Source of the DNA: Escherichia phage EC.P2
Length of the DNA stretch: 64,000 nucleotides
Reading direction: 5' to 3' (one strand)
Sequence record: PQ631072.1
The notes beneath the pieces were generated by a model that was not told where the DNA came from, did not search any database, and saw only the letters and a list, made by a program, of their open reading frames with translations. Shown here one piece after another: positions 11,022 through 63,896 of the stretch (positions are counted from its first letter, which is position 1; every line of letters starts with the position of its first letter). The position numbers and the translations under genes are program-made.

Positions 11022-11108
11022 TTAACTTTCTTATTGACACCGGATCACGCTTACATTATTATTTATCACGTAGGGCAAATCATTTTAAACGGTAAACGAG
11101 GAATCACC

Positions 11109-11492
11109 ATGAGCAATATCATCAACCTGGCGGCTACTGTAAACGGTAAAGACTTTAACGGCGCTGTAGATCGTGATCCTATGTGGTGCTTATCAGTGTT
11201 TAAAGGCGATCTGGTTGAAGTTAGAACAACCGAAGGTTATAGCGACGATTATAAATGCGAGATCCATTTACATAACTGGTACACGGGTAAAACTTATGCG
11301 CTGAATCACGCGTTTATCGGGAAAATTGAATATCGCGAAATGATCGACGAAGAAACGGGGCAAGATTTTAGCGATTATGTTTATATTCGTTCCGAAACAT
11401 TAGCCGAACGGTTGATCGAGAAAATGAAAGCAAAAAATAAAATTAATTTAACTCATTGGATTGATATAACAAACGATCCAGCTTATCAGTAA
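11109..11492 (+). CDS. Hypothetical protein (127 aa)
   Basis: ORF; promoter ttgaca at 11043; start trimmed to RBS-supported ATG. Confidence 0.5.
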   Translation: MSNIINLAATVNGKDFNGAVDRDPMWCLSVFKGDLVEVRTTEGYSDDYKCEIHLHNWYTGKTYALNHAFIGKIEYREMIDEETGQDFSDYVYIRSETLAERLIEKMKAKNKINLTHWIDITNDPAYQ

Positions 11493-11508
11493 ATAACATT
11501 CCATACAA

Positions 11509-11534
11509 GGGCGCAATAAGCGCCCTTTCTTTTT
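11509..11534 (+). terminator. Rho-independent terminator (gggcgc-aataa-gcgccc + T-run)
   Basis: Same stem sequence as terminator 5946. Confidence 0.65.
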
Positions 11535-11739
11535 ACCTCAATAAAGATGATAGCTTTTACCTATCAAAAACGTTCACCGAAAAAAGTGAATAGATCGCGG
11601 TATCGAGCTAATCAAGGAGCAGATGAATAACCATACCATGAAGATCATAAGGCGCTTACAACGTGTTTTAGACCGCTTATTTTTAATTTCTCCATGTAAC
11701 TATCTGGCAAAAACAGCCTTTTTCTTATCTTTCCTCTTA

Positions 11740-11820
11740 AATAATAATCATTCTCATTTATAGCTGATTATTTATGCAATAAACTGAATAATGCAATAAT
11801 GATAATCATTCTTAACTTAA
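11740..11820. promoter_or_regulatory. Fur-box-like repeat cluster (second region)
   Basis: aatgataatcattctcatt and aatgataatcattctt. Confidence 0.4.
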
Positions 11821-11829
11821 GACCATCTA

Positions 11830-12130
11830 ACCTATAAAATAATAAGTTATCTAACTAAATTAAAACTAATTATCTTACTTTTATTTATAACTTACTGTTA
11901 CTACCTCATTGATAACCTTATATTAAACAACAATAACTAATATAAATCATTACTAAGCTAAATATAATCTATCTAACCTTTAAAACTATAACTATAATCT
12001 ATTTAATTATTGCACAAAGTAACTATTAAATCGTTAGTAACATTACTAAATAATTAATATCCTATCTATTTATGATCTAATCTTTACCTTACTATCTATT
12101 ACCTAAATAATCATTTCGTACCGTAATCAT
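11830..12130. repeat. About 300-bp tract almost devoid of G on the + strand, with degenerate short repeats
   Basis: Only about a dozen G in about 300 nt by eye; strong strand compositional skew. Confidence 0.6.
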
Positions 12131-12654
12131 TTCATACAATAATTATAACAAGAAATATAATTCGCAAGCGTATCATTAGCAGCCTATGCCGGACACATAG
12201 GCGGCTAATAATAACGCAACTACACATCCCACATAATAACCATCACCGATAGTTATTATTTGTGCTTATGTAGCTTGCAACAACTGCAAGCGCAACAATA
12301 TACATGGTATATTGTATTCCCTTACATTGTTGCGGTGCGTTATTATTAGCTAATGTTTGGAACATTGGCTATAATATAAGCTATCCAATAATAAACATAG
12401 TGAATAATAACCCTGATGATCATAATGCGCCACCTTCCAGGGGGCGCTATGTGAACACAAAGAAATCTTTCTTGTCAAGAAAAATATTACCATTATTGCG
12501 CAAAATTATTTACATCTGAATAGATGGTTTTTCATACTATTGCCCCCAAATTATGCCCCTTTTGTTGCAATATAAACTACTATTTGTTGAGCCTACTTTC
12601 TTAAAAGCGCAATAAATTAGAATTATCTTGATTTTTAGGACGTTTTATAGTATA

Positions 12655-12885
12655 GAAAGTATGCAAATGATAATCATTATCAGCTATCTTCCACGGGTGG
12701 CACTATTTCACGCAGGATCATTTCATTTGGCAAGGTGTATATAGATGTTTAGACTTGCCAAGTCATTGATTTACTTAGAATTTATCTGTTTTGTTGGGAA
12801 TAGTGCCTTTATTGTTCAGAAAATAATCAAAAGTCTTATAAGTCATTGAATGATAATGCAAATGATAATAATTCTCATTGATATT
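12655..12885. promoter_or_regulatory. Fur-box-like repeats incl. perfect core aatgataatcattatc (12664-12679)
   Basis: Also gaatgataatgcaaatgataataattctcatt near 12845. Confidence 0.45.
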
Positions 12886-13237
12886 TGAGGGGGACGGTCG
12901 GCAGAAATCGGGGGCGCTGAAAATCGCGTTAAGCACCTCTCGCAAGCGAGCAGTATTTTGCGGCAAGTTATTGATATTATTGACTTTACGCTTATGAAAA
13001 GGGGGTGTGTCGAAATAAATCGGGTATACCGGAAAATTTTTGTGGCATAGATATTTATTTGTCTATATTATGTACTAAGGGGTGTGTTAAAAATAATAGG
13101 TATATATAGAATAATTGATAGGGAAATCCTATACTAAATCCTTCATTAATGATGTTCCTATGTTGCTGTCCTTGTAACAGATGAAAAGACGCTGTATGAT
13201 GTGTGGCATGAAACGTAAATTTATAAAGGAGTCTGAT

Positions 13238-13603
13238 ATGTGTGTTCCTCTTAGCAGTCCACTGCTGTTAGAATTTTACAAAGCATGGATGGAAGATCAT
13301 TCCTCAATGCATCGTGAGAATGTTGGTTTGTGTAATTGCCTTATGGATTACCTGGCAACCACTATGTCAAAGAAAAAACCTACGCAAGAAGATATAGAAC
13401 ATTTCAAGATGGTTCGTAGCAAAACGCTGGAAGAGATGAAACTGCAATTCACGTGTGCTGGGCTATCCTCCTTCCTACCCTTTAATTATGATCTTCTGTG
13501 TTATGAAGATGAAGGTAAGACACATTCTTGCCATACCAACCCAAAGAGATTGCAGTGGGTGAAAGACAGAATCGAAGATGCAAATAATGCTTGCATTGAG
13601 TAG
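13238..13603 (+). CDS. Hypothetical protein, paralog family member A (121 aa)
   Basis: Shares LLxFY, GLCxCL, HPFN and KRxQWVxDRI motifs with ORFs 15383 and 16375. Confidence 0.55.
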   Translation: MCVPLSSPLLLEFYKAWMEDHSSMHRENVGLCNCLMDYLATTMSKKKPTQEDIEHFKMVRSKTLEEMKLQFTCAGLSSFLPFNYDLLCYEDEGKTHSCHTNPKRLQWVKDRIEDANNACIE

Positions 13604-13673
13604 AAATGTCTGTACACTGTGTTCCATATAATATGCAATACCGCGCATAACAAACTACTAATGAGAGGTGTAA

Positions 13674-13991
13674 ATGAAAACCTTAGCTTTGTATATTGAT
13701 CGTCACTCCATTCGAGAAATGCGAGATGTAGAACAGGATTATGAATTCTACCCAGAAATTTGTGAACGCTATGAAACAATTCTTAGTTCTGTAGAAGATC
13801 CAGATACTAGTGAAACAGGTGCTTCCCACTTACTGTGGATGTTGAGTGAAATTCAGGATGGGTGTAATGGTATGTCTGAAACCAAACGCCATCGTTGGCT
13901 AGGCTATATTCAGGGTGTTATGGTTATGAAAAACCTTATTACAGTGAACGATGAACGTAATGCTACACGCCCCGTCTTTAATGGAGCATAA
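13674..13991 (+). CDS. Hypothetical protein (105 aa)
   Basis: ORF with RBS gagagg. Confidence 0.55.
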   Translation: MKTLALYIDRHSIREMRDVEQDYEFYPEICERYETILSSVEDPDTSETGASHLLWMLSEIQDGCNGMSETKRHRWLGYIQGVMVMKNLITVNDERNATRPVFNGA

Positions 13992-13992
13992 C

Positions 13993-14208
13993 ATGAAAAG
14001 CATTAGGGTGTGTATTGAAAATAATTGTGGCTATCTGGGGTTGACACACGTCACTTTCCCTCTTATATTAGATGCCGATATAGCTTACAGCGGAGTTGCT
14101 TATGTGTCATTCAAGACAATGAGCCAAGTACCTGGCTGGAATTGGGAAGTGGTTGATGTTGTTGAAGGAGAAGATTATGTTTTCCTTCCACACGAATATA
14201 CTGTTTAA
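13993..14208 (+). CDS. Hypothetical protein (71 aa)
   Basis: ORF; start trimmed to ATG with RBS ggag. Confidence 0.45.
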   Translation: MKSIRVCIENNCGYLGLTHVTFPLILDADIAYSGVAYVSFKTMSQVPGWNWEVVDVVEGEDYVFLPHEYTV

Positions 14209-14221
14209 AAGAGGAAAAGAA

Positions 14222-14398
14222 TATGGATAAACAAACTACTGTGTACTTAGTAACAAAGAATACCCCAGGCTGGAGCCAATGCAGCACTGTTCCTTACAAG
14301 ATCTGTGCAACATTAGAACTAGCACAACGTGCAGAAGCAGAAGTGAATGCCATGCAATACAGCTATGGTGAGATCATTCCTTTTACTCTTGAACAATA
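14222..14398 (+). CDS. Small hypothetical protein (58 aa)
   Basis: ORF with RBS gaggaaaag; below track cutoff. Confidence 0.4.
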
Positions 14399-14410
14399 AG
14401 GATTTGTGTA

Positions 14411-14863
14411 ATGTTTGAAATTGGTAAAGTATATCGTTTTAAAAACGCATCTTATATCCGTAAGTTTGGTAATGTGTCTGAGTGCAATAGCAAGATTGCT
14501 TTTTTCTTAGGTGATTCCTGTTTTCGTGTATTGGATGTGGATGACTGGTATGGTGTCACTTCTTTGCAATCCTTAGCAGGAGAACAAGAAATTATCACTC
14601 AAAACGAAGGCGATTTTCGTCAGTGTTACACATTGCTTGCAAAAAGTGAGTTTGAATACTTTGTAGAAGTATTAGAGGAAGCACCAAAAAGTAAACATGA
14701 AGAGAAATATCTTCTCGTAGTGGACGGAGTTCCAATCATGGAAACCATCTACCGTGAGGAAGTTGAAAAAGAGGCAAAACGTTACAAGCTGGATCGTACA
14801 CAGAGTGTAGTTGAAGTATATTCTCTTATTGGTGTTGCAGATATTCATGTGAACATTGTATAA
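14411..14863 (+). CDS. Hypothetical protein (150 aa)
   Basis: ORF. Confidence 0.55.
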   Translation: MFEIGKVYRFKNASYIRKFGNVSECNSKIAFFLGDSCFRVLDVDDWYGVTSLQSLAGEQEIITQNEGDFRQCYTLLAKSEFEYFVEVLEEAPKSKHEEKYLLVVDGVPIMETIYREEVEKEAKRYKLDRTQSVVEVYSLIGVADIHVNIV

Positions 14864-15077
14864 TATGTGTAATGATAGATACATTCTTCGTGTATCTGAT
14901 AAGTCTCCAATGTTTGACTGGCGGGGCTGGTGGCTACTAGCTCCGATACAAGGTCTGACAGACGTGGAAAAGGAGGCTTATGTGTATACAAAAGAAGAGA
15001 TAGAAGATAGCCTTTATTTGACAGATAACATTAAGAATGGTATCTTTGAGTGTAAATTGAAAGGAGAGGAAGAATGA
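14856..15077 (+). CDS. Hypothetical protein (73 aa)
   Basis: ORF overlapping neighbours. Confidence 0.45.
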   Translation: MYNMCNDRYILRVSDKSPMFDWRGWWLLAPIQGLTDVEKEAYVYTKEEIEDSLYLTDNIKNGIFECKLKGEEE

Positions 15078-15373
15078 CTGTTACAGAAAAACTGCGCTGT
15101 ATTGCAAAGCAAAGTGGAGAAGGCTTGTGGTTTCCTATTGATGAAGTTATTCAGGACTGTTATGATCAGGCTAAGACTGGCAAATACTCCAAAGCATTTA
15201 AACCATCTGTTTTCGGTTTGGATGACTATCCGACAAATGAACAAGCAAAGAAACGCCAAGTGGATTTGATTGATCTTGCTATGGAAGCACTACGAGAGCG
15301 TGGTCTTAGTAAGGTGTATGCTTTAAACACCAAAGAGGGTTTTGTAGATTCAGTGATCGTAGACTGGCATTAA
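15074..15373 (+). CDS. Hypothetical protein (99 aa)
   Basis: ORF with RBS ggagagga. Confidence 0.55.
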   Translation: MTVTEKLRCIAKQSGEGLWFPIDEVIQDCYDQAKTGKYSKAFKPSVFGLDDYPTNEQAKKRQVDLIDLAMEALRERGLSKVYALNTKEGFVDSVIVDWH

Positions 15374-15382
15374 GGATAGATC

Positions 15383-15751
15383 ATGCAAGAGAATAATAAA
15401 GTGTGTAACATGAAAAGCAGCCCCTATTTGCTACAATTTTATGAGTGGTGGTTAGAACAAGAAGATACAAACTTTAGCAAAAAGCATTATGGTCTTTGCA
15501 CGTGTCTTGTAGACTTCTTATACAATATTGCTTGGATAAAAGACGTTGAGAATGTAGCAAACCTTCAAACCTCTGTACGAGAGGAAATGAAGGAACAGTT
15601 TAAGAAAGCTGGTTTGAACCATTTACACCCATTTAATACAGATTTCTCACACTACTTTACGGAAACAGAGTTAGGCATTGCACACCTTAACAAAGAACGT
15701 GTACAATGGGTGATTGATCGTATTCGTGATATGGAGGAATATAATGGTTAA
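15383..15751 (+). CDS. Hypothetical protein, paralog family member B (122 aa)
   Basis: Motifs shared with 13238 and 16375. Confidence 0.55.
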   Translation: MQENNKVCNMKSSPYLLQFYEWWLEQEDTNFSKKHYGLCTCLVDFLYNIAWIKDVENVANLQTSVREEMKEQFKKAGLNHLHPFNTDFSHYFTETELGIAHLNKERVQWVIDRIRDMEEYNG

Positions 15752-15962
15752 GTTTAAAACTTTCTGTGCAATCTCTGTTTGTCTTATTTTTGCATACGTG
15801 TTATTCTCTGGTATCATTCGTTTAGGTGATCATATGGCAAGAGAAGCTCGTGAAAGTGAAGCTAAAAAAGAACAGTGTATTGTGTTCAAGCATCAAAGAA
15901 ATGCTGAAAAGTTTCTCGCACTTGATTGTAATCGTTATGTATCTTATCAAATGTATGAGTAA
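15744..15962 (+). CDS. Small single-pass membrane protein, TM-paralog 1 (72 aa)
   Basis: Hydrophobic N-terminus; C-terminal block similar to ORF 19815. Confidence 0.5.
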   Translation: MVKFKTFCAISVCLIFAYVLFSGIIRLGDHMAREARESEAKKEQCIVFKHQRNAEKFLALDCNRYVSYQMYE

Positions 15963-15971
15963 GGAGGATTT

Positions 15972-16196
15972 ATGGTAAAACGTCTGGAATGGGATGCGTG
16001 TACTGCTCACGCTTGTCACTGCGCTATTGTGGAAGATCCTAATGGAGAAATGGTGTATTATGAAGATTACGAAGCATTGCACAATGCTGTGATTGCTTTG
16101 CTGGATGATATTAGCTCACGCTACCCAGGACAACAATTCACGTGTCCACATATTCAACTGTTAGCCAAACTTACGGAGTATCCAAGTGTTCCATAA
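15972..16196 (+). CDS. Hypothetical protein (74 aa)
   Basis: ORF with RBS aaggagg. Confidence 0.55.
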   Translation: MVKRLEWDACTAHACHCAIVEDPNGEMVYYEDYEALHNAVIALLDDISSRYPGQQFTCPHIQLLAKLTEYPSVP

Positions 16197-16197
16197 T

Positions 16198-16365
16198 ATG
16201 GGTGTCCCTGAACAACTGCTCTTTATTGTAGGACTAGTAGGCTTATTGGCGGCTGGAGCTAAAGCCGCTTCTCACACGCGTCACATAATGTTAAGATTTC
16301 TATTCCTGCTCCCTTCTATCCTCGTGCTACTAGTCATACTGATCGATAACATTTTTCACAATTAA
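16198..16365 (+). CDS. Small hydrophobic membrane protein (55 aa)
   Basis: Two hydrophobic segments; below track cutoff. Confidence 0.35.
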   Translation: MGVPEQLLFIVGLVGLLAAGAKAASHTRHIMLRFLFLLPSILVLLVILIDNIFHN

Positions 16366-16374
16366 GGAGAGGTC

Positions 16375-16959
16375 ATGAGTAAAATTATACCAAGCAGTTA
16401 TGAATTATTGCAGTTTTATGTGTATTATATAGACTGGGTTACTAGATCGAATGTTAAAGATAATGCAATGTTTAGTAAAAGCATCTGTTTAACGGAAAGT
16501 ATCTTCCGTTATTGGCACACAGGTAGAAAGTGTACACACAGTGAAGCTATGCGCATTGTAGGTGAATACCTGGAGCAATTGCAAAAAGCAGAACTTCCTG
16601 TCCTTCACCCATTCAATGAATCTAAAGAAGAATTAGAACAAGAGTGTAGGGAAGGTAAGTGCCATTTGAATGAAAAACGTATTGAATGGGTAAGGCAACG
16701 TTTAGCCGATGCAGGAAAGACTCCTAGTGACTCTGACTACACGTGGTACGATGTAGAGGGTTTAGTTCAGGGTTTTGAGGCTTGTGCTATAGATAATACC
16801 AATTTTGCCAAAGTTTTATGCGAGGCTTATGATCTGGCAGATAAAATCCGAAAGCAAGGATGGAAACAAGAGCACAAAGAATCATATGAACGTCTTGACA
16901 AGATTTTCAAACAGATCTATTCTAACCACAAAGAGATGTTCCAAATGGAGGATGTGTAA
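16375..16959 (+). CDS. Hypothetical protein, paralog family member C (194 aa)
   Basis: Motifs shared with 13238 and 15383, plus C-terminal extension. Confidence 0.55.
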   Translation: MSKIIPSSYELLQFYVYYIDWVTRSNVKDNAMFSKSICLTESIFRYWHTGRKCTHSEAMRIVGEYLEQLQKAELPVLHPFNESKEELEQECREGKCHLNEKRIEWVRQRLADAGKTPSDSDYTWYDVEGLVQGFEACAIDNTNFAKVLCEAYDLADKIRKQGWKQEHKESYERLDKIFKQIYSNHKEMFQMEDV

Positions 16960-17014
16960 TGAAAGAGATTATGTTTTATTGAATTGCTAAAACACGTTAA
17001 ATAAGGAGAGTGAT

Positions 17015-17419
17015 ATGTGGTCTGTTAAAATCAAATATAATGCGCAGTATTATGGTGGAAAACCTTACGAAGTTGTTATTTGTGATTGTATCTCTGAAGA
17101 AGTTGCACAGCTTTGTGGCGCTGGTGTTAGTGAAGCTATGAACAAAATGCATAATTCTACTGTGCGTTTCCTGGATCGGGATATTCCAGAAGATGTAAAT
17201 GACTATGGTTACGAAGTTATTTACAGTGAAGGTAAGAAGCTCTCTATTGAAGATGCACTTAAAGCACTACCTGCTATGTGCAACCCGACACCAGAAGCAG
17301 TTAAAGAGATTTTACCAGAATCCAACCCCGATGAATATGCTTCTATGGTTGCTTCAGATATGTGGAATCTCTGTCGAGAAACTATGATTAAAAATCTTGT
17401 GGAAATGGCACATGAGTAA
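17015..17419 (+). CDS. Hypothetical protein (134 aa)
   Basis: ORF with RBS aaggagag. Confidence 0.55.
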   Translation: MWSVKIKYNAQYYGGKPYEVVICDCISEEVAQLCGAGVSEAMNKMHNSTVRFLDRDIPEDVNDYGYEVIYSEGKKLSIEDALKALPAMCNPTPEAVKEILPESNPDEYASMVASDMWNLCRETMIKNLVEMAHE

Positions 17420-17630: not shown

Positions 17631-17797
17631 TGCAAACATTTTTTATCGACAAGTTCAACAAAAATATGAACACGTGGATGGCAACATTCACTATGCAATT
17701 TGCGTCATTTAAAGAGGCTCAAGAATGGTGCGATCAACACAAGGATTTTGATTTTTACTATCAAATTAATACAAATCTTTCTCCAGAGGATAAATAA
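17630..17797 (+). CDS. Small hypothetical protein (55 aa)
   Basis: ORF with RBS gggagg. Confidence 0.4.
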   Translation: MQTFFIDKFNKNMNTWMATFTMQFASFKEAQEWCDQHKDFDFYYQINTNLSPEDK

Positions 17798-17798
17798 T

Positions 17799-18143
17799 AT
17801 GTTGGCTGATATTGAAATCCTTATGTACCGACAAGGTATGATCAAAATGTGGCTGGATTCTTTTAGCAACATATACTCCACAGTACGATCAGCAGACGAG
17901 CGTAAAACGCTTATTTTATCTGCTATTGTTGATAAACAACGTTTCTTCAAGGAAATTTTACAAACAGGCTTCTCCGATGCAGGAGTAGAGATTGCAACTC
18001 TTAGTCTTGGGGTGCTGTCTTACTTGGAATCCGTTGTTTTATATGTCTTCTCTTTGGAAGAACACTTGCAATTTGAAGCATTAAAACTTATCTTAGATGC
18101 TGCAATTGACATAGAACAAAATCGAATTGACTCTTTTAAATAA
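17799..18143 (+). CDS. Hypothetical protein (114 aa)
   Basis: ORF; start trimmed to ATG after RBS. Confidence 0.5.
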   Translation: MLADIEILMYRQGMIKMWLDSFSNIYSTVRSADERKTLILSAIVDKQRFFKEILQTGFSDAGVEIATLSLGVLSYLESVVLYVFSLEEHLQFEALKLILDAAIDIEQNRIDSFK

Positions 18144-63703: not shown

Positions 63704-63779
63704 GGTTCCATAGCTCACTGACGAGAGCGCACACCTCATAAGTGTCGAGGGCAGGGATTGTAACCCTGGGGAACCACCA
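63704..63779 (+). tRNA. tRNA with CAT anticodon (Met, or Ile if lysidinylated), CCA encoded
   Basis: Manual cloverleaf: acceptor ggttcc/ggaacc, D-stem gctc/gagc, anticodon loop cuCAUaa, T-stem caggg/ccctg. Confidence 0.7.
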
Positions 63780-63810: not shown

Positions 63811-63896
63811 GCAAGTGTGGTGGAATTGGTGATACACATTGTGCTTAAAACGCAACGCTTAAATGATTGAGGGTTCGAATCCCTCCACTTGCACCA
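63811..63896 (+). tRNA. tRNA-Leu (TAA anticodon), type II with long variable arm, CCA encoded
   Basis: Acceptor gcaagtg/cacttgc, anticodon loop cuUAAaa, 13-nt variable arm, T-arm gaggg-ttcgaat-ccctc. Confidence 0.75.

Follow-up and report, generated by a model that had tools for sequence, protein, structure and literature searches.

A 64,000-nucleotide stretch of DNA from Escherichia phage EC.P2 (sequence record PQ631072.1; the whole stretch is referred to below as the window) carries, in a tightly packed block of small plus-strand genes, three members of one gene family, which we call A, B, and C and all deposited copies of which are annotated as hypothetical. A, B, and C are almost certainly functional and truly homologous paralogs, their similarity lying far beyond chance, and they belong to a family of phage proteins built on a domain of about 105 aa that is predicted to fold as six helices, for which we propose the name N4 gp3-like domain. 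The explanation that we favor overall, and to which we give about an even chance of being correct, is that these proteins form an early accessory module in which a conserved polar core is combined with a variable hairpin. The window is 95 to 98% identical to coliphages of the genus Justusliebigvirus (phi92-like phages of the Stephanstirmvirinae, about 146 kb) and is thus part of the genome of a virulent phage of this genus.

Pairwise BLASTP comparisons aligned A and B with 39% identity over 115 aa (E 4e-26) and B and C with 30% identity over 114 aa (E 1e-11), and A and C matched each other in the C-terminal half only (E 3e-8). In a profile search, all three matched phrog_2510 (E 6e-23, 2e-25, and 1e-17 for A, B, and C, respectively), and a hidden Markov model (HMM) of the family, run against the six-frame translation of the whole 64-kb window, found exactly these three open reading frames (ORFs) and no others, with E values of 1e-39 to 6e-49. 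An earlier note on this DNA, made from the letters of the sequence, had described the three plus-strand ORFs of the packed block as paralogs, and the BLASTP, phrog_2510, and HMM matches bear this out and dispose of the alternative that the shared motifs are chance matches. The motifs listed in the note hold in part. LL(E/Q)FY and (K/E)R.(Q/E)WV..R are present in A, B, and C; GLCxCL is found in A and B but not in C, which has SICL and still keeps the family-invariant Cys; and LHPFN is exact in B and C but reads FLPFN in A. The C-terminal extension that had been put at about 70 aa in the third copy is real, C being 72 aa longer than A and B. AAGGAG or AAGGA lies at the usual distance before each of the three ATG codons. 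A longer ORF for A, beginning at 13181, was considered and rejected, and the start at 13238 was favored because of the AAGGAG site that precedes it and because the annotation of Salmonella phage UAB_1 agrees.

The domain is best defined by an alignment of 110 diverse members, in which mean column identity is 24% (residue numbers follow B). C39, P83, F84, and R106 are invariant in this alignment, and L16, F19, Y20, G37, L38, E68, Q72, F73, L78, N103, W109, and V110 are at least 90% conserved. A and B retain all of the invariant and near-invariant residues, and C differs only in having S-I for G37-L38 and L for F73; Y20, C39, E68, Q72, P83-F84-N85, H101, N103, R106, W109, and R113 are kept in all three alike. 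Structure prediction (AF2) gave B as an all-alpha bundle of six helices (mean pLDDT 84.9, pTM 0.78), and the N-terminal domain of C has the same order of helices as the B model. Helices 1, 4, and 6 carry their conserved positions on one face, and others are found where helix 3 begins and in the PFN loop; this periodicity suggests that the conserved polar residues form a cluster. The most variable and gap-rich part of the domain is the segment from 46 to 65 (entropy 3.7, 29% gaps), which runs from the last part of helix 3 through a loop into the first part of helix 4, and it is in this hypervariable helix-loop-helix tip and at their termini that A, B, and C mainly differ. The proteins are mildly acidic, with pI values of 5.3 to 5.7.

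The earlier note had suggested diversifying selection on the strength of what is often seen in duplicated and diverged early genes. Ratios of nonsynonymous to synonymous substitution (dN/dS; pooled Nei-Gojobori [NG86] estimates from orthologs in eight relatives, 8-9 genomes of Justusliebigvirus) do not support this suggestion, since they lie between 0.05 and 0.18 and are similar to those of neighboring genes (Table 1). Values in this range imply purifying selection at the timescale of the genus and show that A, B, and C are real coding genes. The variation in the family is structural instead, and it consists of differences in copy number, gene gain, loss, chimeras, and fusions.

Paralog A illustrates this structural variation. 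Two tandem copies, A1 and A2, stand at the position of A in six of the eight sampled relatives, which therefore have four family members and not three. Window positions 13101-13566 match A1 of phage outra (95.7%, blastn), and positions 13553-13698 match the end of outra A2 and the DNA downstream of it (92.5%), so that the A1 and A2 matches meet at a 14-nt overlap inside the conserved LQWVKDRI motif. A is most simply read as an A1::A2 chimera that arose when the tandem paralogs recombined, its 5' part coming from A1 and its last 12 or so codons from A2. The A2-type alleles diverge strongly in the hypervariable hairpin segment. A-type copies at least 90% identical were found in only about 34 records, and A is absent from VEcB, ESCO9, alia, SD2, and PD114; as far as these genomes tell, A is dispensable in several close relatives. 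B and C, for their part, are 94 to 99% identical in about 55 phage records. The arrangements at the A locus suggest that nested deletions and fusions occurred there in succession. A 51-aa ORF, predicted to encode a membrane protein, lies between A1 and A2 in EC_OE_11 (L008 1401-1556) and ESCO8 (L010 1412-1567), the tail of this ORF is fused to A1 in genomes of the outra type, and a similar hydrophobic N-terminal segment precedes the family domain in another member (P0034).

In C, the family domain is fused to a separate helical module that is homologous to phAPEC8_0042 over the whole length of the latter. The N-terminal part of C resembles phAPEC8_0041 and residues 120-193 align with residues 2-75 of the 75-aa phAPEC8_0042 (E 4e-7), and phAPEC8_0041 and phAPEC8_0042 are adjacent genes with a one-base overlap. 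The fusion suggests a functional link between the domain and this 75-aa partner. The extension also gives a weak match to phrog_25020, and it is predicted to be helical, at low confidence and from a shallow alignment. Separately, a metagenomic protein (P0005) consists of the N-terminal domain of C (16375-16719) joined to the C-terminal part of the protein encoded by ORF 17700-18143, an architecture that implies a deletion of about 1.3 kb joining two genes in frame.

The family reaches far beyond this genus. When 1.84 billion representatives were searched exhaustively with a profile, 695 proteins were found at an E value of at most 1e-3 and 135 at an E value of at most 1e-10, most of them stand-alone proteins of 100 to 125 aa; a word-indexed protein search reached close relatives only. 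By tblastn, members are found in the Stephanstirmvirinae, at 2 to 8 copies per genome, in Klebsiella, Escherichia coli, and Acinetobacter phages of 45 to 48 kb, in Schitoviridae, and in Rhizobium, Erwinia, and Xanthomonas phages. Salmonella phages also hold members, and structure matches in BFVD extend the family to Pectobacterium, Burkholderia, Achromobacter, and Delftia phages, so that the hosts concerned are alpha-, beta-, and gammaproteobacteria. Coliphage N4 also has a member, its gp3 (YP_950481, 104 aa), which matches the 110-sequence family profile (hhalign probability 99.4%, E 4.7e-21) and B (BLASTP E 7e-8). One further match, a protein of 2,115 aa with 14 partial matches (P0148), was left out because it is probably spurious and due to repeats.

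Pfam, NCBIfam, and PADLOC yielded nothing usable for A, B, and C, for ten long fusion proteins, or for the 110 members, and neither the 3-sequence nor the 110-sequence profile found a sequence relative in the PDB. The BFVD matches to the B model (TM 0.56-0.79) are uncharacterized members of the family and nothing else. With the prophage-type domain as the query, no confirmed locus was obtained in representative bacterial genomes, and a literature search by PHROG identifiers, locus tags, the genus together with anti-defense, EaA/DUF551, and N4 gp3 found no functional statement. In the public databases the family corresponds to phrog_2510, phrog_27059, and phrog_6418 together with pVOG VOG7392; C matches phrog_27059 from end to end (E 1e-138), and the orthologs in phages outra and inny carry the tag VOG7392. 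What was already public, therefore, is the sequences and their clusters (PHROG and pVOG), as hypothetical proteins; what is new is the delimitation of the family, the links to N4 gp3 and to EaA/Ea22 mosaic proteins, the chimera, the fusion, and the absence of a structural relative.

The domain also occurs in larger architectures. Four proteins contain it as a double or triple tandem (P0006, P0032, P0036, and P0140), and in some P22-like phages (Lederbergvirus) and their metagenomic relatives it is the central cassette of proteins of 250 to 400 aa, the N- and C-terminal modules of which match annotated EaA/Eaa proteins of P22-like phages. When E. coli genomes were searched at the DNA level with the P22-like fusion gene, only its flanking modules were matched. 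In the deposited sequence of Salmonella phage GE_vB_TR (marked UNVERIFIED; L003 4001-4760), the domain-bearing EaA-like gene is frameshifted. In the present genus, most genomes have an ead/Ea22-like gene and a DUF551-annotated gene directly after C. The ead/Ea22-like gene (684 to 687 nt) is present in UAB_1, JLBYU50, EC_OE_11, outra, EmilieFrey, inny, and Paula and is absent from ESCO8 and from the window, where 16959-17015 is all that separates C from the next ORF. The DUF551 label comes from the JLBYU50 annotation, and the copy in this window gave no Pfam match.

The position of the genes bears on when they are expressed. In UAB_1, the ends of which are annotated, positions 1-343 form the left direct terminal repeat (DTR), and A, B, and C correspond to gp001, gp008, and gp011, A being identical to UAB1_gp001. 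A is therefore the first gene after the physical left end, and the small-gene block begins right behind the left DTR. In the window, the terminal repeat lies inside a 1.7-kb ORF-poor and repeat-rich stretch (11500-13180) directly upstream of A. In phi92, B and C are represented by Phi92_gp006 and Phi92_gp010. N4 gp1, gp2, gp15, and gp16 are early products of the injected virion RNA polymerase (PMC4496689), and the slot after a gp2-like gene, in which N4 gp3 stands, is likewise held by a family member in Erwinia phage Kuerle and E. coli phage AL25. The place of A behind the terminal repeat and of N4 gp3 in an early region make early expression of A, B, and C plausible by analogy, and the description of these genes as early in the earlier note can be kept to that extent. 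No transcriptome for a phage of the Stephanstirmvirinae was found in the literature.

Table 1. Coordinates of the paralogs and associated features in the window, with dN/dS ratios
Feature	Coordinates	Strand	Remarks	dN/dS
Paralog A, 121 aa	13238..13603	+	AAGGAG 7 nt before ATG at 13238	0.18
Paralog B, 122 aa	15383..15751	+	Shine-Dalgarno site; phrog_2510 match	0.10
Paralog C, 194 aa	16375..16959	+	Shine-Dalgarno site; phrog_2510 match	0.09 (whole)
C family domain, residues 1-115	16375..16719	+	Resembles phAPEC8_0041, E 4e-12	0.05
C extension, residues 116-194 + stop codon	16720..16959	+	phAPEC8_0042 match	0.13
Putative recombination junction in A, 14-nt overlap	13553..13566	+	blastn vs outra; inside conserved LQWVKDRI motif	
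Direct terminal repeat, approximate	12590..12932	.	Alignment to UAB_1 DTR 1-343	
Most neighboring genes				0.04-0.20

What the module might do can be put forward only tentatively, with less than an even chance of being right. It would be a cytoplasmic accessory acting on a broadly conserved component of the host or the phage; the activity common to the family, whether binding or chemical, would come from the conserved polar cluster, and the variable hairpin, the fused partners, or the multimerizing scaffolds would set specificity or avidity. Because A is dispensable in several close relatives, an accessory role in host takeover or counter-defense appears more likely than that of an essential replication or structural protein, and such functions are usually located in blocks of small uncharacterized genes that lie terminally in the large genomes of virulent phages. 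Several points weigh against this explanation. Almost every genome of the genus has B and C, which may make their status as dispensable accessories doubtful; early expression in this phage is deduced from position and from N4; and the polar cluster is read only from helical periodicity. Moreover, purifying selection and conserved polar residues fit an enzyme or a ligand binder at least as well. This is the main rival, and we give it perhaps a one-in-several chance: the domain would be a small enzyme, or a binder of a small molecule or nucleotide, centered on the invariant C39 at the N terminus of helix 3 and assisted by E68, Q72, N103, R106, and usually H101, and the paralogs would share one chemistry, for example one that modifies or sequesters a conserved metabolite or signal. 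C39 and R106 are indeed invariant in spite of a mean column identity of about 24%, with E68, Q72, and N103 at least 91% conserved and H101 at 75%; in helices 1, 4, and 6 the conserved residues are spaced i, i+3/4, and i+7 and so face one side, C39 sits at the start of a predicted helix (38-53), and the full set is kept in all three paralogs. The purifying selection and the wide taxonomic conservation are in line with such an activity, and the tandem-domain proteins and the fusions to tetramer scaffolds would suit oligomeric pockets. However, the domain showed no sequence or fold similarity to a known enzyme or sponge, it is all-helical and only about 105 aa long, H101 and C100 are not universal, the genomic context points to no ligand, and up to eight diverged copies per genome would be unusual for a single enzymatic function.

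The idea closest to the earlier note, that these anti-defense proteins evolve fast under diversifying selection and that each is adapted to its own immune protein of the host, we consider improbable, although it draws on real features of the family: the genes are multicopy and stand in a presumptive early accessory block, their copy number varies among close relatives, the hairpin is hypervariable and is where the A2-type alleles differ strongly, and in temperate phages the domain lies in the ea region. The low dN/dS values within the genus, no higher than those of the neighbors, argue against it, and the spread of the family over phages of alpha-, beta-, and gammaproteobacteria points to a conserved target and not to strain-specific immune proteins. 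No family member is present in the supplementary data of two accessory-gene screens. Sequence profiles and fold comparison gave no match to any solved structure, and PADLOC, which covers defense proteins, gave nothing; on an anti-defense or host-takeover function as such, the results speak neither for nor against. A structural or catalytic zinc site formed by the conserved Cys and His residues, the metal site of the earlier note, is very unlikely. Candidate ligands can be named in each paralog (CxC ... CH in A, CxC and H in B, C and CH in C), and C39, C100, and H101 occur together in about one third of the family. Among the 110 members, however, C39 stands alone in being invariant: the second Cys of GLCxCL, C41, is present in 14% (62% have Asn there), C100, the Cys before the His, in 52%, and H101 in 75%, and some members have a single Cys. 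Because there is one invariant Cys and the other ligands have been lost independently, a metal site is not supported as a family-wide feature, and no match to a zinc-binding fold was found; A alone has four candidate ligands, and that one copy may have a metal site. Least credible of all is a part for these proteins in controlling the early-to-middle switch, as small DNA-binding or transcription regulators. The arms-race protein binder, the zinc domain, and the DNA-binding regulator are therefore all less likely than an accessory module or an enzyme or sponge.

A bolder proposal, which we hold to be speculative, is that the gp3-like domain is an undescribed fold with an activity of its own, either an enzyme that depends on the Cys or an oligomer that binds a conserved small molecule or nucleotide signal. 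If this were true, it would be a domain that phages of many Proteobacteria deploy at the very start of infection, and the paralog arrays, the tandem fusions, the 75-aa partner, and the Ea22/EaA tetramer scaffolds would represent different means of its delivery. At present the family is a well-delimited unknown rather than a surprise and is of moderate interest. Even so, three anonymous ORFs have become a defined family of about 700 sequence clusters without a Pfam entry or a structural relative, one that links early genes of virulent phages with the Ea22/EaA mosaics found in temperate phages and that offers a short list of invariant residues, a candidate partner (phAPEC8_0042-like), and a tractable member in a model phage, N4 gp3. 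A function, if found, would annotate hundreds of phage genomes at once.

Several other features of the block and of the window were seen. A small ORF with a hydrophobic segment (15744-15962) overlaps the end of B, and its dN/dS of 0.72, the sole high value in the block, rests on few substitutions in 6 genomes. The ORF at 15972-16196 gives a weak PHROG match to a Lar-like restriction alleviation protein (E 5e-4), its ortholog in JLBYU50 being annotated as "putative HNH endonuclease", and 14411-14863 gives a weak PHROG match to a goF mRNA metabolism modulator (E 1e-4). Ahead of the terminal-repeat region, the last gene block is closed by a strong terminator-like hairpin (11507-11527; 8 bp, 6 of them GC, with a T-run) directly 3' of ORF 11034-11492. 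Sequences close to the E. coli Fur box, the consensus of which is GATAATGATAATCATTATC, are found at 762-780, 815-833, 11795-11813, and 12663-12681, with related copies near 11740 and 12860; five matches with at most 3 mismatches to this consensus were observed where 0.05 was expected. Two of these sequences lie in the ORF-poor terminal-repeat stretch just upstream of A. The sequences may serve as sites for host Fur on early promoters, or they may represent a phage-specific repeat. Genes for tRNA-Met and tRNA-Leu stand at the right end of the window (63704-63779 and 63811-63896), and shifts in GC skew near 24 kb and 60 kb show switches between strand blocks. Four records labeled as Campylobacter phages (A150, A145, C3, and A110a; MG065639, MG065645, MG065656, and MG065689) are about 96% identical to this region, and at 146 kb these Campylobacter jejuni-labeled phages equal Justusliebigvirus in size; probably they were assigned to the wrong host, or else they derive from contaminating coliforms.

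Among known systems, the C-terminal domain of lambda Ea22 is a mixed alpha-beta dimer, solved by nuclear magnetic resonance (PMC10834534). The gp3-like domain is not homologous to it, the models being all-helical, and as regards membership in the Ea22 family we found no sequence or fold match in the PDB and no coiled-coil segment in the models. The clusters PHROG 2510, 27059, and 6418 and VOG7392 are automatic and come without a function, a curated domain definition, or a structure, and the present analysis merges them into one family and adds the architecture variants. N4 gp3 is the nearest counterpart in a model phage, sharing with the family the GLC, PFN, and CHLN..RI.W motifs and being encoded by a small gene near the left genome end, between gp1/gp2 and gp15/gp16. 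It differs in being single-copy, where this phage group has three or four copies, and its identity is only about 25%; as it is named only "gp3" and has no function attached, it provides timing by analogy and no mechanism. Among small helical counter-defense proteins of phages whose structures have been solved, Ocr and the cyclic-nucleotide sponge Acb2 are comparators for the family, which they resemble in size and acidic charge and also in presumptive early expression and probable oligomeric use.

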